IMG/VR virus record: IMGVR_UViG_3300046507_000599
Source: an uncultured virus (IMG/VR IMGVR_UViG_3300046507_000599)
Lineage: Duplodnaviria; Heunggongvirae; Uroviricota; Caudoviricetes
Strand: one strand, 5' to 3'
DNA length: 64,000 nt
The position numbers were made by a program, and so were the translations under genes. A model generated the notes under the pieces. That model was given only the letters and a program-made list of their open reading frames with translations. It searched no databases and was not told the DNA's origin. Of the stretch, positions 3,045-38,220 are shown in pieces. The first letter of the stretch is position 1. Each line of letters opens with the position of its first letter.

Positions 3045-3056
3045 CTATTACCTTCA

Positions 3057-3143: not shown

Positions 3144-3216
3144 GTTCACCATTCATCCCGTACGAGTCTAAATGATGGTTCACGGCTTGCGACCTCGCAA
3201 GAATGGCGCGGCGCCA

Positions 3217-4145: not shown

Positions 4146-4201
4146 CACTATCTCCAGGCACAAAAAAACCGCCTCATGGGCGGCCGGGTGTTCGTCATTG
4201 A

Positions 4202-21990: not shown

Positions 21991-22034
21991 TACCTCGTCA
22001 AGCCGGGCACACCGCCCGGCTCAACATTCAGGGG

Positions 22035-23003
22035 TTACTTGGAGGCATCACCGATCAGAGCCACACCAGCGGTGTGCTTGATGCTGGTAGCAGTCTTGTC
22101 CCAGTTGGTACCGGTCGCCAGCTCGGCGTCGGTTGGCGACTTGCCGCCGGTGGTGGTGTCCCAGGTGTAACCCTTCAGGCCCAAGCCGAAGGTGTAATCG
22201 GTTTGGAGCGTGGTTTCGATGCGCTCCTTGCCGTTGGTGGTCTGGACGTTGCTGATGATGTCGCGGCCGTCGTGGACCAGCGCAGCGCCTTGCACCAGGG
22301 AGAGGATGATTTCCTTGTTCGGGGTGCCGGCCTGCATCAGCGCAGGGGCATCCGTCACAACGGAGATCTTGCCGAGGATGTCCACCACGCGAACGTTGCC
22401 CGCCTGGAACAGCTGCTGCTGGTTCGCCAGGTTCTGGCCGACCAACTTGTGGTAGCTGGTACCCTGCATCACCTGGGTGACCAAGTTCTGACTGGCGTCG
22501 CCGAACTTCGCATGCGCGTTGTTCAGGCCTGCGTAGGTGATGCCTGCGGTCGCCGACACATCGTTGACTGCGGCGGCTTGGGCGGTGATCGCTGCAACCA
22601 GTGCCGCGATCGCAGTGTTCAACTGATCCTTCAGCAGGATTTCAGCGAACGCGCGGCTCGCGACTTCGATACCTTGCGCGGTTGGGCGCTCCAGCCAGGT
22701 CATCTGCGATGGCTCATAGCGAATCGGGCCGAAGCCGCCGGCGACCTTCACCGAAGTGTTCTTCAGCTCGGTCAGGTCAGTGGCAGCAACGGCGGCGTTG
22801 GCGCTGTAGCGGTCCACGCGGCGCTGAGCAGCAGCAAGAGTCTGGAAGAACGACTCTTGGAGGAAGTCGCCAGTGAAGCCGTCCGGGGACAGCACAATAG
22901 CGCCCCGGCTCGCAGCGTTGAACGCGGCGAGATATTGATCCAGCGTCTCGAGAGTCGCCGGCATGATGTATTCGTTGAAAACCTGCATTTGCGACAGGGA
23001 CAT
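22035..23003 (-). CDS. Major capsid protein
   Basis: 322 aa after scaffold; GYTWD...NWDK. Confidence 0.9.
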   Translation of the reverse strand: MSLSQMQVFNEYIMPATLETLDQYLAAFNAASRGAIVLSPDGFTGDFLQESFFQTLAAAQRRVDRYSANAAVAATDLTELKNTSVKVAGGFGPIRYEPSQMTWLERPTAQGIEVASRAFAEILLKDQLNTAIAALVAAITAQAAAVNDVSATAGITYAGLNNAHAKFGDASQNLVTQVMQGTSYHKLVGQNLANQQQLFQAGNVRVVDILGKISVVTDAPALMQAGTPNKEIILSLVQGAALVHDGRDIISNVQTTNGKERIETTLQTDYTFGLGLKGYTWDTTTGGKSPTDAELATGTNWDKTATSIKHTAGVALIGDASK

Positions 23004-23014
23004 GAGTTATTTCC

Positions 23015-23722
23015 TTACGATTGAGGGAGATCTGGGAACCGGCTTGCGATTGCAGCCGTGCGTTCCTCTTTGGTACCGCCGATTTTTCCTTTCGGGGCCC
23101 CGCCCCCACCACCTGCACCGCCGGCCCCGCCGCCAGATGCCTTGCTACCCGCGATCAACGGCGCGAACGCCGCGTCATTCGCGATTTCTGCTTTAAGCTC
23201 GTCGAGCGTTGCCGCCGAGAGCTTGCCCTGTGCATCGAGGACGACCACAACAGGCTTCCCGTCGCGCTGCTCGACGCTCAGACGGCGCTCGATGTGCGGC
23301 AACAAGGCTTTGGCGCTGCCTTGCACTGCCAGTGCAGAGGCGATGTCAGTAGCGGTACGACCGACAGTCAGATCCCGGATCTGCCCGCTCAGCGTTCCAC
23401 GCTCCTGTTCCAACATGCCGTTCAGCTCAGCTTCTCGGCGGGTAAATTTTTCAGTCCAGGAACGCTCGAGCTCTTCGACGTTGCCGGACTTGCGAGCGGC
23501 TTCTTCACGCTCCAAACGCGCGGCATCTTCAGCTTCGCGCGCCTTTTTCTCGGCGGCTTTCTTCTCGCCGAGCAGCTCATCAACCTTGGCCTTCAGGCCG
23601 GATACATCCTCTTGCTGCGGCAGACCTTCAATGCCGAGAACGAACTTGCCGTCCTTCTCGGTGTAAAGAGCGCGCACGGCTTCATCTACCCCTTCCAGGG
23701 TATCCAGTTGGAATTTCAGCAT
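23015..23722 (-). CDS. Capsid scaffolding protein
   Basis: Coiled coil with Gly-rich C-terminus, precedes capsid gene. Confidence 0.82.
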   Translation of the reverse strand: MLKFQLDTLEGVDEAVRALYTEKDGKFVLGIEGLPQQEDVSGLKAKVDELLGEKKAAEKKAREAEDAARLEREEAARKSGNVEELERSWTEKFTRREAELNGMLEQERGTLSGQIRDLTVGRTATDIASALAVQGSAKALLPHIERRLSVEQRDGKPVVVVLDAQGKLSAATLDELKAEIANDAAFAPLIAGSKASGGGAGGAGGGGGAPKGKIGGTKEERTAAIASRFPDLPQS

Positions 23723-23815
23723 TGGTTGTCTCCCAGAGACGTAGGTGCAGGCCCTGCCTGCAAGTTAGAAAAGTAGGTAAAGTCTCTGCCTTCAGAGACT
23801 GGACGAGAGATCTAG

Positions 23816-24346
23816 GTGCGTATTCGAAAACCCAAATCAAGCGAAGTCGCCCCTAAAGAGGCAACAACTCCTTTGACGTCAAACATGCTTGCAATTGCAG
23901 TCGTTACCGGTTTCGCTACCTTGGCTGCCGCTGGCTTCGGAGCTTATGCAGTTTTTGCCTCCGCGAAGCTCAGTCGCATCGAGAGCTGCGTCAAACGCAT
24001 AGATGAGCGGGAGTTAGCAACGCGAGAAAAAGCAGCGGCATTGCTAAAAAATCTCGGCGGATTTCTCGCGAGTACAGCTATGTCGGAGGACACTGCTGTC
24101 GTGGGAATACCGGGCACGAGGGTTGTCGAATCGGCATTTGAACTCTTGGCGTACGCACCTCCTGAGCTCAACATCGTAGCGGTTAATATGGGTCTCACCA
24201 TTCGACAAGGGTTGGCCGCTAAAACCCCAAACCAGCAACGAGAAGCCATTGATGCGGGAGGTCATGCCTTTGACGGATGGACACAAACCTATTCGCAACA
24301 TATGAAGTCATTCGACGCTGAACGCGTTGCTTGCCAAACAAATTGA
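23816..24346 (+). CDS. Antisense moron, membrane protein
   Basis: N-terminal TM; opposite strand within head operon. Confidence 0.7.
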   Translation: MRIRKPKSSEVAPKEATTPLTSNMLAIAVVTGFATLAAAGFGAYAVFASAKLSRIESCVKRIDERELATREKAAALLKNLGGFLASTAMSEDTAVVGIPGTRVVESAFELLAYAPPELNIVAVNMGLTIRQGLAAKTPNQQREAIDAGGHAFDGWTQTYSQHMKSFDAERVACQTN

Positions 24347-24349
24347 GAC

Positions 24350-25435
24350 TCAAATGCTGGCGCGAGCAAACGCGAGAGGTTCCAAAGCCTTCATCTGTGA
24401 GAGCGTCAGCGCAGCAAAGTTGCGATCAAGCTGTAGCTCAGCAAAGCGCTCTACGCTTAGCCCGCCTTCACGGAACAGCTTCGCTCGAACCGGACCGATA
24501 GCCTTGTCCTGAAACGCTGCCGGCTGCTGCTTGAGCCAGTCGTAGTAGCTGAGGTCTGCCCTTACCTGCTGCGCGCCAGAGTCGCCGACGGATGCACGCG
24601 TGGCGCCCTCGGCAAACAGCGCGCTGAAGCGAGTCACCGCTACCACCGTCGAACGGCAATTGATGTGGATCGGCGGCCGCGGCCCTTCGGTCAGCTTGAA
24701 ACGGCGCTTGTCGAGCGTCCGGCACTGGCTGGTAGTCTTCGAATCCAGGGTGCTGACCCACTCCACCGACGGCACGACATCAGAGTTCGCCTTCAGCGTC
24801 TCCATGCGCGCCTGGGTAGCGACGTGCTGCACCGCCGTTCGCACGATGGCGCCAGCGTTGCGGTTCGTCGTGGCTAGGATCCCGTCGTTGTACTTGAGCG
24901 CTTTGGTGCCACGGATGTTCTTGATGATCTCGAAGTTGGTTTGGCCTTCGAAGAAGCCCTGCCGGATCGCGCCTGTGAGGCGTTGTCGCTCCGTGGCGGT
25001 GAAGCCATCAATGAACGTCTTGAGCAGCTTGCCGCCATCCGCGCCGCGCACGCTCAGCGGATTGGTGAGGATTGCCGCCCTGATTGCTGCAGCACCTGGC
25101 ACCGCCGCGTCGAAGGTGATGCCTACCGGCGCAGCCCGGGTCAGGCTGGTTGCCTCAAACTCGGCCTCGTAGTTGGCGATATCGACCAAGTCTAGATTCA
25201 GCTTCTCGCTGTACCGGTCGAAGATGCCCAGCAGCAGGCTGTCTACCTCGCTCAGCAGCCGCTCCAGACGCGCAACGGTGTAATCCGTCAGGTCGGCCCG
25301 GGTCAGCCGCTCGCGAATCGAGCGGTCGATCTCTTTGAGGAAAGGTGCGAACTTGGCCACCTCCCCCGACTTCAGTTGCTCAAGGAAGACGGCGTGCCGA
25401 ATCGTGGCATCAAGGATCGCTTGGTTTGCCGCCAT
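24350..25435 (-). CDS. Minor head protein (Mu gpF/SPP1 gp7-like)
   Basis: TLDSKTT..C..LD, PPIHINCRS. Confidence 0.92.
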   Translation of the reverse strand: MAANQAILDATIRHAVFLEQLKSGEVAKFAPFLKEIDRSIRERLTRADLTDYTVARLERLLSEVDSLLLGIFDRYSEKLNLDLVDIANYEAEFEATSLTRAAPVGITFDAAVPGAAAIRAAILTNPLSVRGADGGKLLKTFIDGFTATERQRLTGAIRQGFFEGQTNFEIIKNIRGTKALKYNDGILATTNRNAGAIVRTAVQHVATQARMETLKANSDVVPSVEWVSTLDSKTTSQCRTLDKRRFKLTEGPRPPIHINCRSTVVAVTRFSALFAEGATRASVGDSGAQQVRADLSYYDWLKQQPAAFQDKAIGPVRAKLFREGGLSVERFAELQLDRNFAALTLSQMKALEPLAFARASI

Positions 25436-26873
25436 TTAGGTTTGCCTCGTCGTCGTCATCCAGATCCGGTCCGGTGCTTTGCGCTTCGAGTTCACCCCGA
25501 ATTTCATCGTCCGTCTTCTCTGGGTTGATCACGCCTCGATCGCGCAGGTACTGCCAGAAGTCGCCTTCAGGCAGCTTTCCACCTTGCACTGCGTTAAACA
25601 GCGCTGCCAGGATCGTCGCGTCCAGAGTGATCTGGCTGAAGTCTTGGTTGAGTTTGTAGATCACTTCGCCGGATGCATTCACGAATTCAGCCATCCACGT
25701 CAGGCACTGGCTGTAGGCCTCGCTGACGTTACTGACCACCAGCGACAAAACACTGTGTTCTGCTGCGCTGTCGTTGTCGGCTTGGGTTGCGGTCTTCACC
25801 GCGCTACCACGCTCGATCAGACGGGCGCCGAGCGAAACCATGTCCTGTTTCTTGGATTCCATTGCCTCCTTGGCGACCGTGTTCGGCTGAGCCTGCCAAA
25901 CCCCGCAGGTGCCATTTACTGGAAGCAGCCAAGGTGCGCGGGAGCCGAGGAATATCCCGTTCGTCTCCATGTGATCGCGCCACTGCTCATCGAGACCGGC
26001 CATCCACGGCTGAGGCTGGCCCACCAAGTAGGCAGCTTCTTCGTAGTCCGCACTGTTGCGATAATGGCCGATGTTCACCTCAGCCATGTCGTACAGCGGG
26101 GCGTCGTCGATGGTGGTGTCGTTGTTCTCGCTGCCCAGGAATTGGAACGGGATGACGCGCCATGGCTGGCCTGATCCGCTCAGTGGGGCAAACGGCGCGA
26201 CGGTCATTTCCGTCTTGCTCGCCCCCTCCTCCCACACTTCCTGCGTGTAGACACCGGTAGCATCCAGACGCAGCACACGATATTGCACAACCTGCTCACT
26301 GCCGAACCCGTCATCACTATCGACATCGACCTTTTCGCGCAGCACAACCAGGCTCAGCAGATGCTGACCGCCAACCTGGCGCGTCTTCCAGTTGATGATT
26401 GATTCAGCTGGGTAGCTTGCGACGTTTGCGCGGGCGCGACCGGATTGCTCGTCTGCCTTACTCACGGTGCCGGGCTCAACAGCGGCATAGTCGACCAGCA
26501 GGCCGTGACGACCTACTTCGAGCAAGTGCCCGATAACCGATTGCGATTGCTGGTAAACACTGACGCCCTGCCCGTCGATGTCCTTTGTCACGTAGTTGAG
26601 CGCACCGGGAACAGTCAGCGTTGGCCAAGTGCGGAATACTGCACCTACTAGACTGTGTTTTGTGCGGCCTGTGGCGTTGTAGAGCACCGCGCGCTTCTTG
26701 TACGCGTCATAACGGTCGCGGTTGTCCTGGGACTTGTCCGAGGCATTCGGCCGGGGCAAGTAGTAATCGCCGGCAGCCTTGACCGTTTCCGAGCCCTTGC
26801 AGACGTCGCGCACCAAGCGCCAGCGGTACTGTGCCGCCTTGTACTCGGGGCGAGTAAAAGTGACGTCCGTCAT
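25410..26873 (-). CDS. Portal protein (DUF4055-type)
   Basis: Follows TerL; Y..Y..RA..YN.T motif. Confidence 0.88.
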   Translation of the reverse strand: MTDVTFTRPEYKAAQYRWRLVRDVCKGSETVKAAGDYYLPRPNASDKSQDNRDRYDAYKKRAVLYNATGRTKHSLVGAVFRTWPTLTVPGALNYVTKDIDGQGVSVYQQSQSVIGHLLEVGRHGLLVDYAAVEPGTVSKADEQSGRARANVASYPAESIINWKTRQVGGQHLLSLVVLREKVDVDSDDGFGSEQVVQYRVLRLDATGVYTQEVWEEGASKTEMTVAPFAPLSGSGQPWRVIPFQFLGSENNDTTIDDAPLYDMAEVNIGHYRNSADYEEAAYLVGQPQPWMAGLDEQWRDHMETNGIFLGSRAPWLLPVNGTCGVWQAQPNTVAKEAMESKKQDMVSLGARLIERGSAVKTATQADNDSAAEHSVLSLVVSNVSEAYSQCLTWMAEFVNASGEVIYKLNQDFSQITLDATILAALFNAVQGGKLPEGDFWQYLRDRGVINPEKTDDEIRGELEAQSTGPDLDDDDEANLNGGKPSDP

Positions 26874-28171
26874 CGAGCGACTCCCATTTTCATTGAGGTG
26901 ACCGGTTTAACGATCGGGTACTCGCGGTGAATGAAGTAACCGCCGCCGTCGTTGGCGTGGTCGTTGCCTTGGCTCTTGTCCGGCTCGCCGTTGGGCGCCC
27001 AGATTTGCTGTTCCAGGCCATCGGCGTAGGTCGGGCATCTAAACGGGTTCACTAGGTAACGTCGCTCGCCCTGCGCATTGCAGAACATGGCGTTCATGGC
27101 GTTGATCCGATCCTTCACCGGCGGATTAGCGGCCGGCGCGATGACTGTGAAGCCTGCCTGCTTGAGCATGGCGATATCGGTGAGGCTGGCATTGACCGAC
27201 TTACGCGAATCGCCGGAGGCGTCCGGGTAGATCCGGATCTCGCAGGTCTTCTTGTAGTCGTTGCCGGTGTGCTCCCAGTACCGCTCTTTGATGCGACGAA
27301 TCATGTCCGGCGTGTCGTAGCCATCCATCAACTCGTCCACGGCTCGCGGTAGGCCTTGGTCACGTTTGACGTGGGTGATCGCGGCCATTTTGCCGACGTT
27401 GAAGTCCATGCCGATGAACAGCGGCTCGCCAGCCTGCACAGTGTCGAAGCACTGGTTCAGCTTGCGGTCGTAAGCGTGGTAGATCGATCCGGACGTCAGG
27501 TTGACGAACTGTCCGTTCAGGTACGCGCGGATCAGCTGCTCGGGGTACGACTCCATCAGCGATGCGATGTAGTCGTCAGGCAGGTTCAGCTCGTTGTCGA
27601 AGGTGCTGGCCTGGATCAGGCCATACATTTCCTTTAGCGCCGGCTTGTCGCGTAGCTGCTTTACGAACTGGAGGAAGACGAACTTGAAGCCTTCCGGCGT
27701 CGTGGTCACGTCCACGCCGTTTTTCAGCCCGGGCAGGTTGTAACGCATCCGGGCAATGATCTTGCGCCAGGCCTGCTGCGCCTTGATCGACGTCAGCACG
27801 TCCAGCTCATCGACCAACGCGTGACCTATCTTGAAGCCGACGATGGTTTGCGGCTTCTCCATGGACCGGCAGATCACAGTGCCGCGATACTGCCGGCCGC
27901 TGTAAATGTGAACCTCATGGTTCGCTTGGTTGATCTTGGTCTTCAGCCCCCAGTCGTAAGCCACCTCCTCCATCGTGGGATAGAAGATGTCTCGGATCTG
28001 CGGGTAAGTCGGAGCGAAGTAGCCAGCGTTGACGCCCGGCCACTCCATGAAATGCTTGCTGAGCGCTGAGCATCCGACCCAGGTCTTCCCAGAGCCGAAG
28101 CCAGCAACGAAAGCGCGAAACTTATGGGGCAACAAGAGGAACTGCGACTGCGGAACGTTAAGGCTCGGCAT
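26870..28171 (-). CDS. Terminase large subunit
   Basis: Walker A AGFGSGKT, VDE, TTTPEG, nuclease GMDFN, DH..D. Confidence 0.95.
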   Translation of the reverse strand: MPSLNVPQSQFLLLPHKFRAFVAGFGSGKTWVGCSALSKHFMEWPGVNAGYFAPTYPQIRDIFYPTMEEVAYDWGLKTKINQANHEVHIYSGRQYRGTVICRSMEKPQTIVGFKIGHALVDELDVLTSIKAQQAWRKIIARMRYNLPGLKNGVDVTTTPEGFKFVFLQFVKQLRDKPALKEMYGLIQASTFDNELNLPDDYIASLMESYPEQLIRAYLNGQFVNLTSGSIYHAYDRKLNQCFDTVQAGEPLFIGMDFNVGKMAAITHVKRDQGLPRAVDELMDGYDTPDMIRRIKERYWEHTGNDYKKTCEIRIYPDASGDSRKSVNASLTDIAMLKQAGFTVIAPAANPPVKDRINAMNAMFCNAQGERRYLVNPFRCPTYADGLEQQIWAPNGEPDKSQGNDHANDGGGYFIHREYPIVKPVTSMKMGVAR

Positions 28172-28619
28172 TCGGCTTCCTCGCATCCACTACGTCGACC
28201 TGGATGCGCGTCGGGATTGCCGGCTCATCGTCTGGCTCGTCCTTCCGGTTGCGATTGACGTAGACGTCGCCGACTTCCTTGGCGGCCTGCTCGAGGATCT
28301 GCATGGCCAGGCCTATGTTCTTCATCGTTTCGGCCTTCTCCACAAACCGGTTCATCGCACGAAGGCGGAACGCTCGGTTCGCGATCGGGATTTCGGCTGT
28401 CTCCTCGCGGAAGCGCTTGCGGGTATCTTCAAACACCGCTTTCCACTTCACGCCAAGGTCACGGCCGGCATGCTTCGTTGGGTCGTACTGCTCGCACTGC
28501 TGGCGAGACACCTCGACGCCGAATGTTTCCTTGACCGCCTGCACTACCTGAGTCGGAGTATCAAAGCAGGCCAACGCCTGCACAATGAAGCGCTTCACCT
28601 CATCTTTCAGGGCTGCCAT
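28158..28619 (-). CDS. Terminase small subunit (DUF2280-type)
   Basis: FIVQALACFDTP, ILEQAAKE; upstream of TerL. Confidence 0.88.
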   Translation of the reverse strand: MAALKDEVKRFIVQALACFDTPTQVVQAVKETFGVEVSRQQCEQYDPTKHAGRDLGVKWKAVFEDTRKRFREETAEIPIANRAFRLRAMNRFVEKAETMKNIGLAMQILEQAAKEVGDVYVNRNRKDEPDDEPAIPTRIQVDVVDARKPNAEP

Positions 28620-28651
28620 ATGGGTTTATTCCGTCAAGGTCCTGTCAAGGA

Positions 28652-29278
28652 TCAGGCCGACTTGAGCAGACAGGTTCCGCAGGCCCTCGATATGTTCAAT
28701 TTCCCCACCTCAGCAGGACTGTTTGCAGCATCCACTAACGCTTGAACGTCAGGGCTTGCACCGTAGCGGCGAACCACTCCGACGAACTCTTCGACGTCGT
28801 GGCCGCGCATGCACAACTTAGGCATCCCCTCCTTCGTAAACTTGGGGGCACCGAACGCGTCGAGCTCTTGGGCGATGTGATAAAGCTCGTGTTCGATCAG
28901 GGCGCAGAACTCAGCGTCGGAGCACTGAGCGCAGTAGCTGGCATCCAGGGTTATAAGATATGCCGGCACTCGACCGAACCATTCGATCATCTGTTGCTCT
29001 TGCCTACCCTTCTGCCAAGGACCGCAGCGGAAAGTGACCTGCTCAACCTGGCCGACAATTGTCCGGCCATGCTTGATGAATCCACTGGCAGCCCACAACA
29101 CAGCAAGATCGGCATCAATCAAATGCCCATGGTCTTCGTTATAAAGTTCGCCATTGGGATCAATGATCGTGGAGAACAGCCAATCGGATGCTTCGTGGGT
29201 AGGCAAAAAGAAAGTCGGATGGGAGTCACTTTCGGTGAAGATGCCAAGATTCATTGGCGGAACAGGTCTATTCGCCAT
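28652..29278 (-). CDS. Putative phage metallopeptidase
   Basis: HELYH motif and HDVEEF..VVRRYG. Confidence 0.85.
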   Translation of the reverse strand: MANRPVPPMNLGIFTESDSHPTFFLPTHEASDWLFSTIIDPNGELYNEDHGHLIDADLAVLWAASGFIKHGRTIVGQVEQVTFRCGPWQKGRQEQQMIEWFGRVPAYLITLDASYCAQCSDAEFCALIEHELYHIAQELDAFGAPKFTKEGMPKLCMRGHDVEEFVGVVRRYGASPDVQALVDAANSPAEVGKLNISRACGTCLLKSA

Positions 29279-29378
29279 GGCGTATCTTCTTTTTGTGATT
29301 CAGTTGGCTCGAGTAAGATTATCCAGCATGCTGAAGGCCCAGAATTTATGGGGCCTTCCAAGCATTGGTCACATCAAC

Positions 29379-30458
29379 TCATTTAAGAATGTAGAGCACT
29401 ACTAGGACAGCCAACACCCCCCAGAAGAGTTTTCTGCTCATCCCTTGAACCTGCTGGTGAGGCGCGTGAGTAGGCGCGATCGGAGGGGTCGAATTTGGCT
29501 CCTCCACGCTGACGGCAGCGGGCGGCCTGAAACGAACTTCATCCAACTGTTGTTCCAGATCGGAAATCTCTTGCTCTCGATCCGAAATGATTTTTTCAAA
29601 ATTGCTTGCAAGCAAACTGATCGACTTGATCTGTTCGTTGATATGAGTCCCTGCGGCACTGGGCGTTGCTGCAGAGTGATCGCATATCAAGTCCAGCATT
29701 GTAGAGTTGGCGCTATGCCCTAGCCCAACCACACGATACCCAGGATGATCCGCCAGCGCACTCAACACAACTGGATCGTTGAAAGCCGTAAAATCAGACT
29801 CAGATCCCCCTCCCCGGACAATCGCAAGCACGTCAGCACTTGAGGATCGAATAGCTTCAGCAATAGCAGAGGGGCTGCTCATACGAACTGGAATTGGTTT
29901 CACATCAATTCGAGCCAAACTACTCCCCAGCGCTTGCGTGAAGTCGTCATCAACTTGAGCGCTCGTTGCCGAAGAGTGAATGAGGTTCAACGTTAACGTC
30001 GACAACGTAGGGAAAGGGTTGCGTTTAGCCTTGTAGGACCGAAGTGCGTTCAGATTGGCCTGATCTTCACTACGACGAACCTGTGCCTCTATACCCTCGG
30101 CCGCCTTAATGCTCAGAAGCTTAAGCCGAAATGAAGGACTGCCGTTGTACACAGTTATGATCGGCAAACCTGTAACTTCTACGTGATCCCCATCCTTAAA
30201 ATGCTGTACCAGCGCTAGACTGGAATCAAAATAAACATTTCCATCGCATGCTAACGTCCCGCCCAAAATTTTCGACCAGCCAAGCTCCTTTGCCCTGGCT
30301 ATTTTGTCGGAGATAGAACTAACCGTGCCAAAGGATCGAACCAATAGTTCGAGATCTCCCTCCCACGTTCTTAGCTTCCGATTAGCTATTTCGGCGAACA
30401 ATTGATTTAAATCGCCCGCGCTCAAAAGAATACCGCTTCCCTGCTGATTTTCACTCAT
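29379..30458 (-). CDS. Exonuclease VII large subunit-like protein with C-terminal TM (moron)
   Basis: IVRGGGS..DF..FND, GLGH...T..DL..D....TPSAAG; coiled coil; terminal LFWGVLAVLVVLYILK. Confidence 0.8.
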   Translation of the reverse strand: MSENQQGSGILLSAGDLNQLFAEIANRKLRTWEGDLELLVRSFGTVSSISDKIARAKELGWSKILGGTLACDGNVYFDSSLALVQHFKDGDHVEVTGLPIITVYNGSPSFRLKLLSIKAAEGIEAQVRRSEDQANLNALRSYKAKRNPFPTLSTLTLNLIHSSATSAQVDDDFTQALGSSLARIDVKPIPVRMSSPSAIAEAIRSSSADVLAIVRGGGSESDFTAFNDPVVLSALADHPGYRVVGLGHSANSTMLDLICDHSAATPSAAGTHINEQIKSISLLASNFEKIISDREQEISDLEQQLDEVRFRPPAAVSVEEPNSTPPIAPTHAPHQQVQGMSRKLFWGVLAVLVVLYILK

Positions 30459-30509
30459 ATCCTAGACAGCCCAATACGCAAAAAAACGAACTTTATCATG
30501 GGCTACTAT

Positions 30510-30683
30510 CGCGGTCATTCGACAGCATAAGCCATCCATGCTGTCTCGCTTTCCGCATGGCCGTACAGCATGAAACGATAAATCCTTGAGGCCGTGCGGA
30601 GGCCTTTGCCGTGTCGACGGCCTTTACGATCGCGCTATCCAGCTGGGTCAATGGCAGTGCGTGGCGAAGGCGTGTTACGTGGT
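30510..30683 (-). pseudogene. Frameshifted remnant of a small phage gene upstream of terminase
   Basis: VTRLRHALPL...LDSAIVKAVD..PQGFIV, continues in another frame as LYGHAESET. Confidence 0.45.
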
Positions 30684-30782
30684 AACGATTCACTCCACTC
30701 GGCGAGTTGGCTTTTTTGGGAAAGTGCATTACGCGAGTCGGGTATCATCGGTCCTCCTAGAATTTTCGAGAACGCAACGCTC

Positions 30783-31148
30783 ATGCATGGAAGCCTTTTG
30801 ATGGCCGCGCTGGTTATGTCTCCTTCTCTCGCTATCGCAGCCCCTTCTCCCTACGCCTACGACGAAGCCCCTACTGATGGCTTCATGTATGCCATGAGGT
30901 ATCAGCAAGCGAAATTGGCTTGTGGCTCGCTTCCAGATGACCTTGAAGCGGATTATGCAAAGGCAATGCAATTGACCGCAGAAGCCAGTTCCGAATTTGA
31001 GAAGACCTACACGAAAGGCCTGGCAGCAACCCCAAGGTGGCTTGAACCTGCAACGGCTGAAGAGCAGGAGGCAGAGTGCAATCAAGCACAGGTGGCGCTT
31101 CGTGTGACGGTCAGACTTGCACGCCAGTGGTTCCCTGGCGCCTGGTAA
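30783..31148 (+). CDS. Antisense moron, secreted protein
   Basis: Signal peptide (SLAIA), two Cys. Confidence 0.65.
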   Translation: MHGSLLMAALVMSPSLAIAAPSPYAYDEAPTDGFMYAMRYQQAKLACGSLPDDLEADYAKAMQLTAEASSEFEKTYTKGLAATPRWLEPATAEEQEAECNQAQVALRVTVRLARQWFPGAW

Positions 31149-31180
31149 CAACTAGCAGCGTTCGCAAAGTGCAATTTGAC

Positions 31181-31513
31181 TTACTCAGGCTTGCGGGTCG
31201 GCAACTTGAAGTCAGTAACCCGGTCCGCGATGCTGCGGATCTTCTCCACTCCCAGGAACCCTACCCAGCCACCGGCAAAAGTGGCCATGCTCTGGGGCAA
31301 GCCGAAGAAGTCCAGGCCGCTGATGATGGTCAGGGTCAGGCCGCCGCATATGGCGCCTTCCACAAGCATCTGGCGACGAGTGCCGCCACCGTAAGTGATC
31401 CGCAGCACGGCCATGGCGCAGGACAGCGCAGCCGCATAGAGGATTGGCGAATGCTGGCTCAACCACGCAAGCGCTATCGCCCATGTGTCTGGTTTGTCTG
31501 GCATGTTTGGCAT
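31181..31513 (-). CDS. Holin, lambda S-like
   Basis: Three TMs, GGWVGFLGVEKIR, basic C-terminus; first late gene. Confidence 0.9.
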   Translation of the reverse strand: MPNMPDKPDTWAIALAWLSQHSPILYAAALSCAMAVLRITYGGGTRRQMLVEGAICGGLTLTIISGLDFFGLPQSMATFAGGWVGFLGVEKIRSIADRVTDFKLPTRKPE

Positions 31514-31763
31514 CTCGATTCCTCCCCTTCAGGGAGATAGGAATATCGCAGGCGGTGTCCCGCGGATTTGATTCAGCTCCAACAACACTCCGTGCTCGGA
31601 GCAATGGGTATTGGAACCGAAAACGAAAAAGCCCCTGCGGATGCAGAGGCCTGAATAACGGCCTATGTAGGCGAGCCGGTAATGGGGTTAAAGGGTGCTC
31701 GATCTACTTGACTATAAATGATTGACAAACGAGTCTCGGATTTTGCCAAGACTGGAGAACCTA

Positions 31764-32366
31764 ATGGAATGGAATTTGATCTGGACCACGGTAGCAGCGG
31801 TTGCTGCAGCATTATCAGCCATCACTGGCGCGGCCTCAGCTTACGCGGCCTTCAGAGCAATCAAGGAAAACAATTCCAACCATACAAAAGCTAATGAGGT
31901 GGCGGAAAAAGAGCGAAAAAATGAGCGCCTACTCGCCCATGCGATAACTACATTGGAAAGATCGTATAGCACCCTTGATGGAGGCAAACCCAGCTTAAAC
32001 GTTCCACCCAAAAACCGAATCAATTGGCTCACTTCTGCACGACTCATACAAGAATACAAAAGTACGAAAGCCAGAATTCAAGACCCGTTTATTCTTCAAG
32101 AGTGCATAAGTCACGAAGCGTACTGGCGAAACAAGTTTTACGTTCGCATTGACCCGCTGAGCCATGGCTTCCCGGACTATTTCAAACAAGGGGAAGGGGA
32201 AAATATTCAACTCACATCGGCCATCGTCGTAGCAGATTTTTCGATGTGGCCTGAAGGAAGGGAAGACCCCATAGCTGAGCTCGAAGGCGCGCCAGAGGCA
32301 ATTACTGGGCGGCCACTTCATCTGAAATGGTTCAACCTGCTCCAGATCGTGAAAAGCAGCAAATAA
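31764..32366 (+). CDS. Antisense moron with N-terminal TM
   Basis: GGAG RBS; convergent on the late terminator. Confidence 0.75.
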   Translation: MEWNLIWTTVAAVAAALSAITGAASAYAAFRAIKENNSNHTKANEVAEKERKNERLLAHAITTLERSYSTLDGGKPSLNVPPKNRINWLTSARLIQEYKSTKARIQDPFILQECISHEAYWRNKFYVRIDPLSHGFPDYFKQGEGENIQLTSAIVVADFSMWPEGREDPIAELEGAPEAITGRPLHLKWFNLLQIVKSSK

Positions 32367-32374
32367 CAAACAAT

Positions 32375-32402
32375 AAAAAACCCGGCAGTAGCCGGGTTTT
32401 TT
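32375..32402. terminator. Bidirectional terminator (tR'-like)
   Basis: AAAAAA-CCCGGC-agta-GCCGGG-TTTTTT. Confidence 0.85.
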
Positions 32403-32446
32403 ATCTTCGAGAAAATTGCCGAAGGCAAAACTTTAACATTGACGAA

Positions 32447-32475
32447 ATAGTGCCCTCAGCCGTGCGGGAAGTCAA
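32447..32475 (-). promoter_or_regulatory. Late promoter, pR'-like
   Basis: TTGACT-N17-CACTAT; -35 overlaps the Q stop codon; terminator ~45 bp downstream. Confidence 0.65.
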
Positions 32476-33053
32476 GCGGCCTCTTTCATTTTACAAATCA
32501 CACCGCCAATTGGGCTTAGTGCACGTGCATCGATGTCGTAACAAGCATCAAAGCAAAGCTGCACGAAGGGCTCCCAATCACGCCCCCAAGCTGCGGACGG
32601 CAGCTCGACGTCGTACTCCCCTTTCATCCAGGCTCGGAATAACTCAGGCTTTATCAGCGGATCGGCATTGGCCGATTGTCCGCCTTGGTGCATGTAGCGG
32701 TAACGACGAAACACGCCCTTGACAACGTATTCAGCCCGCTCCCGCTTGCTGGCGGTCATGCGTGCTGCTCGCGAACATGCAAGATTGAAAACCGCAGCTT
32801 CGGCCTCCTCCCGATCATCATCTGTCGGCTCAGCCGCATACATAGCATTGCCGAAAGCCCGCAGTTGAAAGTGAAGCCGTGCGATAGCCGACTGAATGTG
32901 GCCGGATAGCGCCGCGTGCATCGCAGGGTTCGCCGTGGGACCTCGCTCTGTGCTCTGCACCACTACCCCCAGTTCGGCAGCGTCGGAAGTCTGGCCCGGG
33001 ACCGGGTTGTATTTGCAGTCGTGCCACGCTTGGCGCGCTGAGTTGATTTTCAT
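32472..33053 (-). CDS. Probable late antiterminator (Q position)
   Basis: Last delayed-early gene before promoter/terminator/holin; MKINSARQAWHD family. Confidence 0.65.
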   Translation of the reverse strand: MKINSARQAWHDCKYNPVPGQTSDAAELGVVVQSTERGPTANPAMHAALSGHIQSAIARLHFQLRAFGNAMYAAEPTDDDREEAEAAVFNLACSRAARMTASKRERAEYVVKGVFRRYRYMHQGGQSANADPLIKPELFRAWMKGEYDVELPSAAWGRDWEPFVQLCFDACYDIDARALSPIGGVICKMKEAA

Positions 33054-33634
33054 GCTGCGTGCCCCTTTTTCAGTTCTCTGGTCTTCGCCCGATATTCGGC
33101 CTTGATGGTTTTGATTTCTTCGACGGTGTGCTTGCCGGCCGGGCGCGGCCCTTCCAGCCAATCGACCTTTTCCGGACCGATCAGCTGCAAGAGCGAAAGC
33201 CGGTAATTCACCAGGTTGCCGGACAGGTGCGTGTTACATGGCGCGCACTGCTTCCACACATTGAGCGGCTCGAATCTCAGCTCGGGGTTTGCTCCCACAG
33301 AGCGGTAGTGCCCCGCGTGGTATTGGCCTTCGTGATGACGACCGCAGCTCACGCAAGGGCGATCGGAATCACGCAGGCGGACCCACTCGTTGAACGCCGC
33401 CTGTGCTTCGCGCAAGTGATCCGCCCTGCTCTTCAGCTTCTCCTTGCGCACCTGAATCTCGCGGCGGTCGCGCTGGGCGATGGCCTTGCGGGCTTTGTCC
33501 TGATTCTTTGGAGCATCGATCAATGCGCATGCCGGGCTGCAAACCGCCTGCCCCATCCGCGATGGAACGAATGAGGCCCTGCAGGTAGCGACGCGGCATT
33601 TCTTGGGCTTTGGCTGCTTCCTTGCGATCGTCAT
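33050..33634 (-). CDS. ninG: NinG/Rap-like endonuclease
   Basis: CxxC, VCSPAC, CVSCG..H..AGHY, QC..CN..LSGN. Confidence 0.9.
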   Translation of the reverse strand: MTIARKQPKPKKCRVATCRASFVPSRMGQAVCSPACALIDAPKNQDKARKAIAQRDRREIQVRKEKLKSRADHLREAQAAFNEWVRLRDSDRPCVSCGRHHEGQYHAGHYRSVGANPELRFEPLNVWKQCAPCNTHLSGNLVNYRLSLLQLIGPEKVDWLEGPRPAGKHTVEEIKTIKAEYRAKTRELKKGHAA

Positions 33635-34101
33635 GCAGCCTCCTGGCTCAACAGATCATCGAAGTACACGCCCTGCTGAGAGAAGCGCGCGACGATGCGG
33701 TCGGTATAGGCCATGCCCTGTGCGCGGTTGAACAGACTGGTTACCGGGAATCCGTCCGGGCCGAATAGCTTGCAGCCTCCCATCATGGCCAGCTTCGTCT
33801 CGTACGGAAGGTGGCGCATGACGCGGTACCACTCGGCCTGAAACCCGGCGTCCTCATTCAGCAAGATCTGCACGCCGACGTGCAATTTGCAGTACCGGCG
33901 GGCGTCGGCCTCATCGCCGATCTGGGTCATCTCTGCGATGCGTTTGTACATCGCGAACCACAGCCGGTTTTGGTCGAGCGTGCGGTCCTTTCCCGGGCGC
34001 AGCGACACCACGACGAACTTCTTGTCGCGGTACATGGCGCTAAGCTTCGTGATGGCCTCGGAGAGTTTCGCCTGACAGTTCACGGAGATTTTGTCAGCCA
34101 T
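33631..34101 (-). CDS. Nin-region protein (NinB-like)
   Basis: RTLDQN..W motif; position. Confidence 0.6.
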   Translation of the reverse strand: MADKISVNCQAKLSEAITKLSAMYRDKKFVVVSLRPGKDRTLDQNRLWFAMYKRIAEMTQIGDEADARRYCKLHVGVQILLNEDAGFQAEWYRVMRHLPYETKLAMMGGCKLFGPDGFPVTSLFNRAQGMAYTDRIVARFSQQGVYFDDLLSQEAA

Positions 34102-34321
34102 GGGTGGCCACCTTGTTCGGCAATCCGTTGATCAGCTCGCCGAGTTGCTGTGTCAGTCGCTCGTTCTCGGCCAGCAACTCAAGCGCCACCTCTTCCACGG
34201 TTTTCTTCCCGAGAAAGTCCTGCAGTGCCTCAGTGTTGCGCTTCCAGTCTGCACAATCGGTGCTGTACGACGCCGCCTCGGCCCACAGCAGCTTCTGGAG
34301 TTTTTGTTTGTCGATGGTCAT
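34094..34321 (-). CDS. Hypothetical phage protein
   Basis: Coupled ORF; LELLAENERL. Confidence 0.7.
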   Translation of the reverse strand: MTIDKQKLQKLLWAEAASYSTDCADWKRNTEALQDFLGKKTVEEVALELLAENERLTQQLGELINGLPNKVATHG

Positions 34322-35115
34322 TGAGCCGCGCTCCTTGCTTCCAATTGTTCGGCCTGCTGGATAAGCAGCGCCCGGCGATCCGCCAGCTCATTGGCTGCCA
34401 GAATTCGCAGTTCTGTTTTTTCCTCGGCCGATGCTTGGCGCATGGCGAGCATCGAATCCTTCACCGCGGCGAGCTTCTCGCGCAGTTTTGGCGAAGGTCG
34501 CGCAACCTCACCGGTGAGCAGCCCAACGACGGCCCTGCCGTCTTCAGTAATCGGCCCGACACTCAAGTCGGCCAGGTACAACTGCCCGCGCTCATGTGGG
34601 ATCCGTTGCATCTGTACGGCCTTCGTGATCGCCTGGGTGCGGCGGTTGGCGTCGAAACCGACTGACACGTGCCAATTGACGTGTTTGTTGTCCTCACGAG
34701 CCTGGCCCACCAAACGCTCGTAAGCGCTGTTGAACGCCATGCGCGCACCGACCTTGTCGCCGGCGTCGAGTACAGGTTTCGCGGCTGCCAGCGCGAGCAG
34801 GATTTCATCGGTCAGCACCACGGTTTCGAACTCGTCGTTCGTAGTCATGGCGATTGACCAAGCTTCGTCCTTGCCCGGGCGGCCATCTGCAACCTGAACT
34901 CGCTGGAGGATGTCAGCCATGGCCAACTTGCCCTTCACTTCGAAGCGGCAAGCCTTCAGCGCGGCCTTTACCACCTGCACCGGGTAAGCACAGAGATCTT
35001 CGGCCATGATCGCCGCGGTGCCCGGGTTCATTTCCTGACCCATGGCCTCGGCAGTGGCGCAGATCGCAGCAGCGAGCCCGGCGACCTGCTGGTCATTCAT
35101 TTCAAAGGTATTCAT
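34318..35115 (-). CDS. Replication protein, P position (helicase loader-like)
   Basis: Directly after initiator; DGRPG.DEAW. Confidence 0.65.
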   Translation of the reverse strand: MNTFEMNDQQVAGLAAAICATAEAMGQEMNPGTAAIMAEDLCAYPVQVVKAALKACRFEVKGKLAMADILQRVQVADGRPGKDEAWSIAMTTNDEFETVVLTDEILLALAAAKPVLDAGDKVGARMAFNSAYERLVGQAREDNKHVNWHVSVGFDANRRTQAITKAVQMQRIPHERGQLYLADLSVGPITEDGRAVVGLLTGEVARPSPKLREKLAAVKDSMLAMRQASAEEKTELRILAANELADRRALLIQQAEQLEARSAAQ

Positions 35116-36073
35116 TGCGCTCCCCCGCTTGGCGCTTGGCCAAGACCATTTGCGCGGCCTGCTCGGCGGCGGAGACGTTCGCTTCGGTGCGCTCCATCTG
35201 ACGCGCAGTCGTCCCGTTGATGCGCTGACCAGTCACCCACTGGGTGTGGTAGCTCTCGGCGTTGGCCAACAGTTCGTTGAGGCTGTGGCACTTGCGCAGA
35301 ACGGCGGCATCGCTGGTTTTCAGGTAGTGCGCGGCGACGTGGTGAGCGACATCGGCGCCGAGGCGGTCGACCAGTTGCCCAAGCTGGCCACCGACCTTGG
35401 CGTTCCACACCGGCCAGGTGCTGTAGCGCTTGCGGTAGGCCATGGCGTAGTTCGCCCAGACCTTGAAGGTTTTGCAGGACTGGTCCTTGGGGCCCGGCAT
35501 GTCAGCGGGAATCTCAACCCGTGGCGCATCGGTGCGGTCAACAACAAGCACTAAGTTGCGGGACGGCTTGTCCGGGCTGCCTCGCAAGCCCTGACTGGTA
35601 TCCTGATTAGTACCCTGATGATTGGTATCCTGATTTGTCGGAGATTTTTCCGACCCTGCCTCGGATTTTTTTCCGACCTTGATCGGAGATTTCTCCGAGG
35701 TAGATCGGATTTTTTTCCGACCTCCGTTCTTTGGTGGGGTCGGATATTTTTCCGACCCGTCGAGCTTCTGGTTCCACTCGATCGCCTTTTCTGTCAGGCG
35801 AAAAAGTGTGATGTTCGAAGTACTGGAAAGCTCAATCAAACCGGCTTCTTCCAGAGCCTTAAGCATGCGGTAAGCGGTGTCTGGCTTATCCGTAAGCAGC
35901 GGCAGCTCCTCTGTGATCTTGGCCTTGCTCAGAGCGAAGAAGATCCCGTCGTCAGTCTTGATTGGCTTGGTCCAGCTCGGGCAGCCGTAGACGAAGGCAA
36001 ACAGCAGGGCCTGCTGAGAATTTAGCCCCCACTCCAAGGCCTTCACCTGATTGATGGTTACGGTGAACTGCAT
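35102..36073 (-). CDS. Replication initiator (O-like)
   Basis: N-terminal wHTH-like region; iterons in gene centre. Confidence 0.85.
   Translation of the reverse strand: MQFTVTINQVKALEWGLNSQQALLFAFVYGCPSWTKPIKTDDGIFFALSKAKITEELPLLTDKPDTAYRMLKALEEAGLIELSSTSNITLFRLTEKAIEWNQKLDGSEKYPTPPKNGGRKKIRSTSEKSPIKVGKKSEAGSEKSPTNQDTNHQGTNQDTSQGLRGSPDKPSRNLVLVVDRTDAPRVEIPADMPGPKDQSCKTFKVWANYAMAYRKRYSTWPVWNAKVGGQLGQLVDRLGADVAHHVAAHYLKTSDAAVLRKCHSLNELLANAESYHTQWVTGQRINGTTARQMERTEANVSAAEQAAQMVLAKRQAGERNEYL
35638..35755. repeat. Origin iterons, 5x TCGGA-N6-TCCGA
   Basis: Copies at 35638, 35661, 35683, 35705, 35740. Confidence 0.85.
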
Positions 36074-36242
36074 GTCAGGTGTTCCTGACGCAGGATGGAA
36101 AAACAAACGTGCGCGACACGTTCAGTGATTTCCGAAAACGTGTCGCGACAGTGTTGCTGGAATTTGGCTGGTTCTGCATAATCAGGCCTCTCTAGTTTAC
36201 GAATCAGCCGACCTCGACCGTCGGCTTTTTTGTGCCTGTCGT

Positions 36243-36668
36243 TTAGGCTGCCTTCACGGACTGCTTGAACACTTCCAGGCTGACAATCACTTCCTCAGCC
36301 TCTTTAAGCAGGCTCGTTTTCTCGACCGAGCAGACTCGCCCATCAGCCTGTGCGTCGAATGCGAGGCGGGTGACGTCGGCAAGATCAGCATGGAGGCGTA
36401 ACAGCGCGGAGTTGAGGTTGATGCCCTCAGGTTTTTCCTTCGGCACCAAGTCGAAGCCGAACGATTCCGCCCAAGCTTTCAGTGGCCTGAAATCCTGGGT
36501 GAACTTCATGATCCGGTGCAGCTCTTCCACGTTCATGCGGTGGGTTTCGTAATGCGGGTTCGCCTTCTGTGAAACCAGCGTGCGGCTAGTGAAGTCAGCG
36601 CCCTCTGCAATGCGCCCCGCTCCGTGGGTGTCCACCACGTCATAAATGGCTGACATCAATTCCTGCAT
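36243..36668 (-). CDS. CII-like regulator
   Basis: Position after cro; KANP...H...EEL...D pattern. Confidence 0.75.
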   Translation of the reverse strand: MQELMSAIYDVVDTHGAGRIAEGADFTSRTLVSQKANPHYETHRMNVEELHRIMKFTQDFRPLKAWAESFGFDLVPKEKPEGINLNSALLRLHADLADVTRLAFDAQADGRVCSVEKTSLLKEAEEVIVSLEVFKQSVKAA

Positions 36669-36746
36669 GTAACACCTCGAGATTCTTTACGTGGCGCCCT
36701 GCAGTTGCAGAGGCGATCATCTGTTCACGAATTGCGGCCAGCAAAA

Positions 36747-36962
36747 TCATGCGGCGGATCTGGCGCTCTTTCCGCGAGTGCACAACTCGCGAGCAGTAAT
36801 TTTTCCGCCGGTCAACTCCTCCGCTAGAAATGCCTTTTCGGCGCGCATCGGATGAATCCCTGAAACCCAGTACGAAACTGCGGCCTGAGACACGTCGAGT
36901 GCTAAAGCGGTTTTGGTTTGCCCGCCGAAGAAGTCGACGAGCCTTTCGATAGGGGTCATCAA
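36747..36962 (-). CDS. cro: Cro-like HTH protein
   Basis: GGQTKTALALDVSQAAVSYW; divergent from cI. Confidence 0.88.
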   Translation of the reverse strand: MMTPIERLVDFFGGQTKTALALDVSQAAVSYWVSGIHPMRAEKAFLAEELTGGKITARELCTRGKSARSAA

Positions 36963-36974
36963 ACAGCCCTCCTA

Positions 36975-37040
36975 ATAAGCCTGCTTATATCCTATTTAGA
37001 AGCAGGCTTATTTGCAAGCCAATAAGGGAACTTATAAATT
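36975..37040. promoter_or_regulatory. OR operators (3x ATAAG-N4-CTTAT) with pR and pRM
   Basis: Operators at 36975, 36998, 37022; TTGCAA at 37012-37017 with N17 to TAGGAT (-) and to TAAATT (+). Confidence 0.8.
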
Positions 37041-37047
37041 CATGTGC

Positions 37048-37704
37048 ATGAGCACACTTGCAGAACGTCTAAAAGAAGCGCGAAAACATGCCAAGCTGAC
37101 CCAGGCAAAACTTGCCGCAGTTTCGGGCGTTGAGCAGCCACTTATTTCCCAGCTGGAAACAGGAAAAAATCTCCAGAGCGCGCACCTTCCAAAATTCGCC
37201 CACATATGCGGCGTCAGCGCCATTTGGCTTTCGGACAACATCGGTCCAATGGTTGTCGACTCCAAAGAGAAGTCCAACGTGTCTGTGGCTTCGCAGCCGG
37301 CACAGAGTTATCGCTATCCGGTGATCAGTTGGGTGTCTGCGGGATCTTGGGCGGAAGCGGTAGAGCCCTACCCAGCTGGAATTTCGGATAACTACGAATT
37401 TTCGGAGTACGACTCAAAAGGATCTGCTTTCTGGCTCACCGTGAAAGGCGACTCGATGACGGCCCCCGCCGGCCAGAGCATCACGGAAGGCACACTGATC
37501 CTCGTCGACACTGAAGCTGAGGTGGTGCCAGGTAAGCTGGTCGTAGCCAAGCTGCCAGATAGCAACGAAGCCACATTCAAAAAGCTCGTCAGCGACGGCG
37601 GGAGGTTGTTCCTCAAGCCGCTGAACCCTAGTTATCCAATTGAACCGTTTGACGAGAATTGCCGCATCGTAGGCGTAGTGGTGCGTGCACTGCAGAAGTT
37701 CTGA
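37048..37704 (+). CDS. cI: CI repressor (HTH + S24 peptidase)
   Basis: XRE HTH, VSAG cleavage site, GDSM, TFKKL. Confidence 0.95.
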   Translation: MSTLAERLKEARKHAKLTQAKLAAVSGVEQPLISQLETGKNLQSAHLPKFAHICGVSAIWLSDNIGPMVVDSKEKSNVSVASQPAQSYRYPVISWVSAGSWAEAVEPYPAGISDNYEFSEYDSKGSAFWLTVKGDSMTAPAGQSITEGTLILVDTEAEVVPGKLVVAKLPDSNEATFKKLVSDGGRLFLKPLNPSYPIEPFDENCRIVGVVVRALQKF

Positions 37705-37799
37705 TAAAGCCCAACATCCGTCGGCAAGCTGGCCATATCGCTACTCAGTGGTCGCTTGAGCTGATAGCGCCGAACCTACTACAAAGGGATCAAGGATCG

Positions 37800-38051
37800 A
37801 TGGTAGATCTGATGCAGCAGCTTGATGGTCCAAGGACTGCACAGCAGGAGTTGTTCTACGACCTTGAGGACGCTACGGCGATCATCGGCTGGTCAGTAAC
37901 CGAGTTGACTGCAATTGCCGGGGTCGCGCGGCCACCTGATGAATCCGTTTCCTTGATGAAGATGGCTGCACTGCTAACTGCTCAGCAGGAAAAGCTTCGC
38001 GGCTATGCGGATGAGGTGAAGGCCGGGCGGATCGTTCGTGCGGAGGAATAG
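37800..38051 (+). CDS. Hypothetical protein
   Basis: AAGGA RBS; 83 aa. Confidence 0.6.
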   Translation: MVDLMQQLDGPRTAQQELFYDLEDATAIIGWSVTELTAIAGVARPPDESVSLMKMAALLTAQQEKLRGYADEVKAGRIVRAEE

Positions 38052-38160
38052 GCCCTGCAAGGTGCTGGGATGGGCAGAAAGCTAAGGCTCGGTCAAAGCG
38101 TCCTGATAAGTCTACGACCGCCCTGTGCGAGTTCAGCCGACCAAATGTCTTGGCCGCCTA

Positions 38161-38211
38161 TTGCATGCTAATTTTTTCCACCTACAATGTAGGAACGAAA
38201 AATTAGCATGC
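38161..38211 (+). promoter_or_regulatory. Promoter overlapped by 14-bp inverted repeat
   Basis: TTGCAT-N16-TACAAT; GCATGCTAATTTTT / AAAAATTAGCATGC. Confidence 0.6.
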
Positions 38212-38220
38212 GAGCTAAAT

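Follow-up and report, generated by a model that had tools for sequence, protein, structure and literature searches.

The stretch of DNA considered here, which we call the window, comprises 64,000 nucleotides of an uncultured virus (Caudoviricetes; IMG/VR record IMGVR_UViG_3300046507_000599). On its minus strand, at positions 29379 to 30458, lies an open reading frame (ORF) whose product, P0001, resembles XseA, the large subunit of exonuclease VII (ExoVII), and ends in a membrane helix. An earlier note on this DNA had described the gene as a stand-alone, membrane-anchored XseA-like moron between holin and terminase with a candidate role in nuclease defence. The placement was exact, with the addition that a PhageMetallopep gene also lies between the two; the architecture turned out to be right in every point, and the interpretation is partly supported. 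The layout of the product, including an oligonucleotide-binding (OB) fold and a transmembrane (TM) helix, is as follows, with confidence values given as the predicted local distance difference test (pLDDT) of an AlphaFold2 model:

29379..30458, minus strand: whole ORF, tail-anchored short XseA-like protein P0001, 359 aa plus stop (PF02601, TIGR00237, AlphaFold2 model)
30093..30440, minus strand: N-terminal OB-fold domain, residues ~7-122
29664..30005, minus strand: catalytic alpha/beta domain, residues ~152-265, with D172, R215-G-G-G, H248, N251 and D256 (PF02601, alignment to XseA, family alignment)
29529..29663, minus strand: single long helix, residues 266-310 (pLDDT 97-98; aligns with the start of the XseA stalk)
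29442..29528, minus strand: Pro-rich disordered linker, residues 311-339 (pLDDT 51-73; 8 Pro in ~30 residues)
29382..29441, minus strand: C-terminal TM helix (tail anchor), residues 340-359 (hydrophobic 17-mer with a Kyte-Doolittle value of 2.03; model helix 340-358, pLDDT 90-95)

The only Pfam family matched by P0001 is PF02601, Exonuc_VII_L (E 6.4e-21; 75.6 bits, cut-off 35.9), and the match spans residues 163-309 and only positions 22-175 of the 315-position profile. Against the NCBIfam xseA equivalog TIGR00237 the protein scores 83.6 bits, below the 180-bit cut-off, and its sole match in PHROGs is phrog_9454, 'exonuclease'. Direct comparison with Escherichia coli XseA (PDB 8TXR) gave an E value of 8.7e-6, which improved to 5.7e-25 across XseA residues 13-321 when a family profile was used. 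The second PDB match of this profile, the tail-anchored SNARE VAMP2, is not significant (E 0.55) and reflects a mere resemblance of coiled coil plus TM helix. The AlphaFold2 model, built on a 112-sequence alignment, reached a mean pLDDT of 89.5 and a predicted template modelling score (pTM) of 0.70; it runs from a short helix through OB-type strands (40-119), an alpha/beta region (155-263) and the helix 266-310 to the low-confidence Pro-rich segment (311-339) and the terminal helix (340-358). The OB fold, the short coil, the linker and the membrane helix proposed earlier are thus all present in the model, and structure comparison with XseA shows the OB fold to be intact. A structural match to XseA was one of two bioinformatic points on which the earlier note had let its proposal hinge, and Foldseek returned a strong one (E 3.8e-18).

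P0001 and canonical XseA (PF02601 plus PF13742) share the N-terminal OB fold followed by an alpha/beta catalytic domain, the RGGG and GH motifs, the equivalents of D155, R205 and H238, and a helix after the catalytic domain. Beyond this point they differ. XseA is ~450 aa long, against 359 aa for P0001, and has a stalk of three helices and ~130 residues that accommodates six XseB subunits, where P0001 has one helix of 45 residues; apart from this helix, P0001 lacks the regions corresponding to residues 261-389 and 390-456, the stalk and C-terminal domain of the E. coli protein (PMC3439923). Conversely, XseA has neither the Pro-rich linker nor the C-terminal TM helix. P0001 is consequently best described as a stand-alone XseA paralogue, which has kept the OB fold and catalytic domain and carries a linker and a C-terminal TM helix in place of the stalk and C-terminal domain; helix 266-310 is the remnant of the coiled-coil stalk.

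P0001 has RGGGS from residue 215 and GLGHSAN from residue 245, both in register with E. coli XseA, which bears out the XseA motifs of the earlier note as well as its remark that GHSAN stands in place of GHExD. The family profile alignment equates D172 with D155, R215 with R205, H248 with H238, N251 with D241 and D256 with D246. The XseA motif RGGG(x)nGHxxDxxxxD is therefore incomplete, with D172, R215, H248 and D256 present and an asparagine, N251, at the position of D241. In E. coli, the alanine mutants D155A, R205A, H238A and D241A are inactive and retain DNA binding (PMC3439923); H238 is an alanine in the XseA mutant of 8TXR (PMC10835039). Three of these four essential residues are thus retained in P0001, the fourth being the asparagine. 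Across the 112 aligned relatives, D172 is D in 109, R215 is R in 111 and H248 is H in all 112, and these three residues together with the GGG loop are 97-100% conserved. Position 256 is D in 93 and E in 11, while position 251 varies (N in 64, D in 28, H in 12, T in 6, Q and R in one each). To judge by this pattern, the active site is under selection in the relatives aligned.

P0001 belongs to a family of tail-anchored short XseA-like proteins, which we define here by an OB fold plus catalytic domain, a length of 300-400 aa, a short tether, a C-terminal hydrophobic helix and no N-terminal signal; P0001 shows every one of these features. A word-based homologue search brought up five relatives, each carrying GHSAN and a hydrophobic C-terminus. 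In an exhaustive HMMER search over 1.84 billion representatives, 8040 proteins matched at E ≤ 1e-3, mostly canonical XseA, 264 at ≤ 1e-10 and 40 at ≤ 1e-30. The family is sparse, with ~150-260 clusters; the ten clusters looked up had 1-21 members. Following the HMMER search, 153 proteins were analysed, 128 of them at least 300 aa long (median 352.5 aa), with a hydrophobic helix scored as a 17-mer of Kyte-Doolittle value ≥ 1.6. Such a segment lies within the last 30 residues in 111 of the 128 full-length relatives and 18-96 residues from the end in 11 of the remaining 17; none of the 128 has one in the first 40 residues. This settles in the affirmative the second point at issue, the conservation of the TM helix in homologues. 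Between the end of the catalytic domain and the membrane helix lie 57 residues at the median (interquartile range 50-74; 108 proteins), and the Pro-rich linker itself is poorly conserved across the family. As a control, none of 30 ORFs from canonical xseA loci has a hydrophobic C-terminus (maximum 0.97), and the true xseA genes carry GHExD.

In a FastTree phylogeny, 50 family members and 16 canonical XseA formed two separate groups with a support of 1.0, where the canonical sequences were drawn from a single class and the family may still nest inside the wider XseA diversity. The nearest neighbours in the ESM Atlas are several clusters of ~370-aa 'exodeoxyribonuclease VII large subunit family' proteins, and a near-identical NCBI protein is named 'exodeoxyribonuclease VII large subunit [Pseudomonas sp. 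S191]'. This public name masks a distinct, membrane-anchored lineage that is borne by mobile elements. A search for longer fused forms of the family found none, which is weak evidence. Because homologues turned up independently in many genomes and metagenomes, the observation lies far beyond chance. We found no publication that describes an XseA-like protein with a membrane anchor or treats ExoVII homologues as defence genes; by term search, the available text of a 2012 (PMC3439923) and a 2024 ExoVII paper held no passage on a membrane-anchored form. The 'exonuclease VII' of two defensome papers is a library-preparation reagent only.

The short form occurs alongside the normal enzyme. Among 400 genomes of one carrier's class, 373 have a canonical-type xseA match (E 1e-12 to 1e-33, frames mostly 400-500 aa), and the short form is found in the carrier itself only (E 1e-90); this tally includes G041, G143, G298 and G310, which are flagged unpublished and enter no other result. 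One canonical xseA is present in all six genomes with the short form, and exactly one xseB, unlinked to the short form, in each of the five short-form genomes tested. P0001 itself is a prophage-borne extra copy. As the earlier note had stated, there is no xseB near its gene: none of the 88 ORFs of 45-140 aa in 22000-38000, within 8 kb, matches PF02609. The short form is hence accessory, and a housekeeping role is excluded.

The window holds a lambdoid Pseudomonas prophage, in which the XseA-like gene is low-GC cargo in a slot between holin and terminase genes:

31181-31513, minus strand: holin, upstream boundary of the slot (PF05106, E 4e-31; phrog_126)
30459..30785, no strand: divergent intergenic region of 327 bp between the XseA-like gene (minus) and a small plus-strand ORF
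26870..29278, minus strand: downstream boundary of the slot, formed by the following three genes
28652-29278, minus strand: PhageMetallopep gene, between the XseA-like gene and the terminase genes
28158-28619, minus strand: DUF2280 small terminase subunit
26870-28186, minus strand: large terminase subunit

The order on the minus strand is NinB-like, NinG, phrog_3373, holin, XseA-like gene, PhageMetallopep, DUF2280, large terminase, portal, MuF-like and head/tail genes, with the endolysin (3723-4259) and Rz-like spanin (3217-3789, minus strand) genes at the far end of the late operon. The lysis genes are thereby split, with the holin before the terminase genes and the endolysin and spanin ~27 kb away, past the tail fibre genes. 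A part for the XseA-like gene in the lysis cassette, as a stand-in for endolysin or spanin, was ruled out: the prophage has both of its own, and P0001 matches only the 'exonuclease' PHROG. The GC content of the gene is 50%, against 58% in the 5-kb flanks. Phage Medea1, which is 82% identical over the terminase, DUF2280 and metallopeptidase genes, ceases to match inside the metallopeptidase gene; its slot is filled by small unrelated genes, and the XseA-like gene is absent. In the nearest virus record (G001, 98% complete; holin match 92%, NinG 88%), the span from holin to portal measures 2.86 kb, compared with 4.27 kb in the window, and the family profile finds no match. Judged by these comparisons, the XseA-like gene is variable cargo of the prophage, in keeping with the term moron.

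With respect to expression, a weak promoter-like match (ATGACC-17-TAAAGT, 8/12) ends ~31 nt before the ATG of the XseA-like gene, and it is possible that the 327-bp intergenic region holds a promoter of its own. Consensus sigma-70 sites numbered zero in 28500-32600, with 3.2 expected in shuffles. Upstream of the holin are terminator-like hairpins (32405-32372 and 31652-31629); no hairpin of similar strength was found between holin and XseA-like gene. The datasets listed as carrying window sequence were three wastewater metagenome runs, with 5-6% of the sampled words, and no RNA dataset was among them.

Other occurrences of the gene were located with sub-alignments A1, A4, A5 and A6, the broad alignments A2 and A3 being too diverse; a scan of viral contigs with A4 and A6 found no loci. 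The twelve loci compared in all include the following:

L037, IMG/VR prophage: a 41%-identical homologue in the same slot, with two holins, XseA-like gene, 95-aa ORF, terminase, portal and MuF
L041, Paenalcaligenes hermetiae: XseA-like gene between SbcCD/DTW and McrB/McrC-like genes
L048, Terriglobia: integrase, AbiJ and a TIR/bSEFIR protein, all within 5 kb
L049, Aquabacterium: two SymE toxins, H-NS, SRAP and a type I restriction R subunit
L050, Sulfuritalea: Gp3-like recombination directionality factor and a DUF3799 PD-(D/E)XK protein
L051, Acetobacteraceae: integrase
L053 and L054, MOBH plasmids of Sulfuricystis and Azospira: divergent from a PD-(D/E)XK gene, near an N-6 methylase
L001, L042 and L043, various: no mobile-element or defence marks; two of the contigs are short

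The setting is that of a mobile element or of restriction/Abi genes at nine of the twelve, as a raw count. Two are holin-terminase slots of prophages, and the large terminases of these phages share only 26% identity; two are MOBH plasmids, one is a phage-like region or one resembling an integrative and conjugative element, and two have integrases. AbiJ with the TIR/bSEFIR protein, the type I restriction R subunit with the SymE toxins, and McrBC are found as neighbours. The proteins of all twelve loci end in a hydrophobic helix. No neighbour gene is conserved across the loci, and a conserved small partner gene was rejected as well, since the flanking small ORFs of nine loci are dissimilar to each other and to phage XseB. 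The PD-(D/E)XK (DUF3799-like) genes lie at 5644-6531 in L053, 5645-6532 in L054 and 9784-10695 in L050; the nuclease of the two plasmids is 59% identical to that of L050, which sits two genes from the XseA-like gene. Loci that combine the two may represent a sub-lineage with a second nuclease.

A known catalytic module here has a conserved architecture and an ecological setting that are both new, and its function is predicted. Irrespective of that function, we regard as established the fold, the conservation of the active-site residues and of the C-terminal anchor, the single-gene status, the accessory distribution and the association with mobile elements. Drawing on sequence features and on analogy, we tentatively favour, at a likelihood somewhat short of even, the reading that P0001 is a membrane-tethered nuclease for single-stranded DNA (ssDNA) ends that excludes incoming phage or conjugative DNA. 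Because the C-terminal anchor comes without a signal sequence, the OB and nuclease head would be cytoplasmic and held at the membrane. ExoVII chemistry requires free ssDNA ends (PMC3439923, PMC10835039), and a head so placed would therefore mainly encounter DNA that is crossing the membrane. It would act on phage genome ends during injection, or on a conjugative T-strand at its leading end, and the circular chromosome would be spared. By trimming or degrading the entering ends, P0001 could exclude superinfecting phages or incoming plasmids, and self would be told from non-self by location, as in the unrelated membrane nuclease SNIPE.

SNIPE, a membrane-bound nuclease of the GIY-YIG type, cuts the DNA of phages as it is injected and shows that such a principle operates in nature; its anchor is reported to prevent self-cleavage, and removal of the anchor leads to nuclease-dependent toxicity (10.1101/2025.11.03.685801). 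The two proteins share a design logic, namely a single protein with one TM helix and cytoplasmic DNA-binding and nuclease domains. They are built from unrelated parts, DUF4041 and a GIY-YIG fold in SNIPE and an OB fold and ExoVII domain in P0001, and the anchor is N-terminal in the former and C-terminal in the latter; no Pfam or PADLOC match links them, and for P0001 the function is predicted. A second point of comparison is SieA of P22, a prophage-encoded inner-membrane protein of superinfection exclusion that acts on incoming DNA. P0001 would likewise be a prophage-encoded inner-membrane protein, with action on incoming DNA only proposed; the two have no sequence relation, and SieA is not a nuclease homologue.

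A broader version of the idea is possible, though we consider it doubtful: tail-anchored ExoVII-like proteins may form a new single-gene immunity or exclusion family of mobile elements, which would remove entering ends at a fixed distance from the inner membrane. Single-stranded or cohesive phage ends, or the relaxase-bound leading end in conjugation, would be removed as they emerge into the cytoplasm, blocking circularization or establishment, with place and the need for a free end as the sole criterion of self and non-self. Such a family would have been made from a DNA-repair enzyme, convergently with SNIPE, and might borrow the host's XseB. The resident phage, with its T4-type (Terminase_6N) large terminase, may package by headful, in which case it would itself be without the targeted ends. 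If the function proposed for P0001 holds, it would be a second, independently evolved immunity that works by confining a nuclease to the site of DNA entry, and an example of a repair enzyme recruited into conflicts between mobile elements; if host XseB is needed, a prophage would be redirecting a host subunit to the membrane.

Several observations weigh against the exclusion of incoming DNA by P0001. The equivalent of D241, whose alanine mutant is inactive in E. coli (PMC3439923), is an asparagine, and the chemistry may thus be weakened or changed. In E. coli, DNA binding is a property of the OB fold, and XseB attaches to the three helices of the stalk; XseA without XseB was reported not to bind DNA, presumably through misfolding (PMC3439923), and no xseB is linked to the gene here. 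PADLOC-DB v2 (5027 models) assigns P0001 to no family at E ≤ 0.1, and the homologue of L048 to none either. Three of the twelve loci lack mobile-element or defence marks, the background rate of such marks has no matched control to set beside the nine, and the pattern-based locus search was non-exhaustive and yielded few loci, with several scans giving few or no relatives. Genomic context is what supports the defence role put forward in the earlier note. Finally, given its late-operon orientation, the lack of a strong terminator after the holin and the lack of a consensus promoter of its own, the gene may be expressed only in the late lytic phase and be silent in the lysogen.

This last point leads to an alternative that we regard as unlikely, in which P0001 is co-transcribed with holin and terminase, is inactive in the lysogen, and degrades host or competitor DNA or blocks superinfection in late infection only. 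Besides the missing terminator and promoter, it can invoke two distantly related prophages in which the gene shares strand and position with the late operon and follows immediately after the holin. Family members also reside in chromosomes and plasmids without phage late genes, however, which argues for a function independent of the lytic cycle; the closest phage relatives manage without an XseA-like gene, and the possible promoter in the divergent intergenic region counts, weakly, in the same direction. Distinctly unlikely, in our estimate, is that P0001 is a catalytically impaired tether, which binds ssDNA ends without cutting and so blocks entry, circularization or establishment, or holds the element's own DNA. 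An intact OB fold, the prevalence of asparagine at position 251 and the DNA-binding, inactive D241A enzyme of E. coli (PMC3439923) would all agree with it. The near-invariance of D172, R215, H248 and the GGG loop would be hard to explain without catalysis, though, and the relatives of the same architecture that keep aspartate suggest that N and D are interchangeable at this position.

We attach still lower probability to a role in counter-defence or DNA processing, by which P0001 would remove ssDNA species of host immunity, such as the multicopy single-stranded DNA (msDNA) of retrons, or process ssDNA of the element itself while that is being transferred or established. ExoVII is involved in msDNA maturation (PMC10835039), and on the two plasmids and at one related locus the gene stands beside the PD-(D/E)XK nuclease near an N-6 DNA methylase, in what by appearance is an establishment-type region. 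This explanation leaves the near-universal membrane anchor unaccounted for; the loci near restriction/Abi genes and the ordinary chromosomal settings better suit a host-side function, and no retron and no reverse transcriptase emerged in scans of the window region examined. The public annotation, finally, would make P0001 an ordinary housekeeping xseA. The PF02601 match and the name of the near-identical NCBI protein speak for it, but it is refuted, with a negligible residual probability, by the sub-threshold equivalog score and partial profile coverage, by the membrane anchor and prophage location, by the full-length xseA that is also present in short-form genomes, and by the separation from the 16 canonical XseA in the tree.

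XseA homologues are known from other phages. The ExoVII pairs of Gordonia phages (Smoothievirus; phrog_9454) include phage-borne proteins that are ~25% identical to P0001 over residues 85-319. They comprise a 388-aa XseA and an adjacent 64-aa XseB in an early DNA-metabolism region, a complete enzyme of the soluble type, whereas P0001 has no XseB, bears a membrane anchor and occupies a late cargo slot. In Gordonia phage WilliamBoone (L040), the complete XseA and XseB pair, at 2797-4176, lies near an Mre11-like nuclease gene.

The prophage of the window holds further genes of interest outside these subjects. Divergent from the XseA-like gene, a small plus-strand ORF (~30786-31148) has a signal-peptide-like start when read from an internal Met (MHGSLLMAALVMSPSLAIAAP...); it matches no family and has no counterpart at the other loci examined. 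A 214-aa ORF at 31722-32366 on the plus strand, antisense to the late operon and with an N-terminal hydrophobic segment, forms a second low-GC patch (47-50%) and found no match in Pfam, PHROG, NCBIfam or PADLOC; it is probably a further cargo gene. The strong terminator-like hairpin that follows it (32372-32405), with a 15-bp stem and flanking A and T runs, may act bidirectionally. Two minus-strand genes in the interior of the tail module, a phrog_890 'lipoprotein' gene (11037-11462) and a 450-aa ORF without PHROG or PADLOC match (11534-12886), may be cargo as well. Beside the repressor region, the same prophage carries a Rosmer-type defence pair (38125-39946, plus strand), recognized by PADLOC as RmrT (E 6e-27) and RmrA (E 7.5e-134). 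The early region (43984-46421, plus strand) encodes a RecT-like annealing protein and a RecE-like exonuclease, and the phage thus already owns a recombination nuclease.

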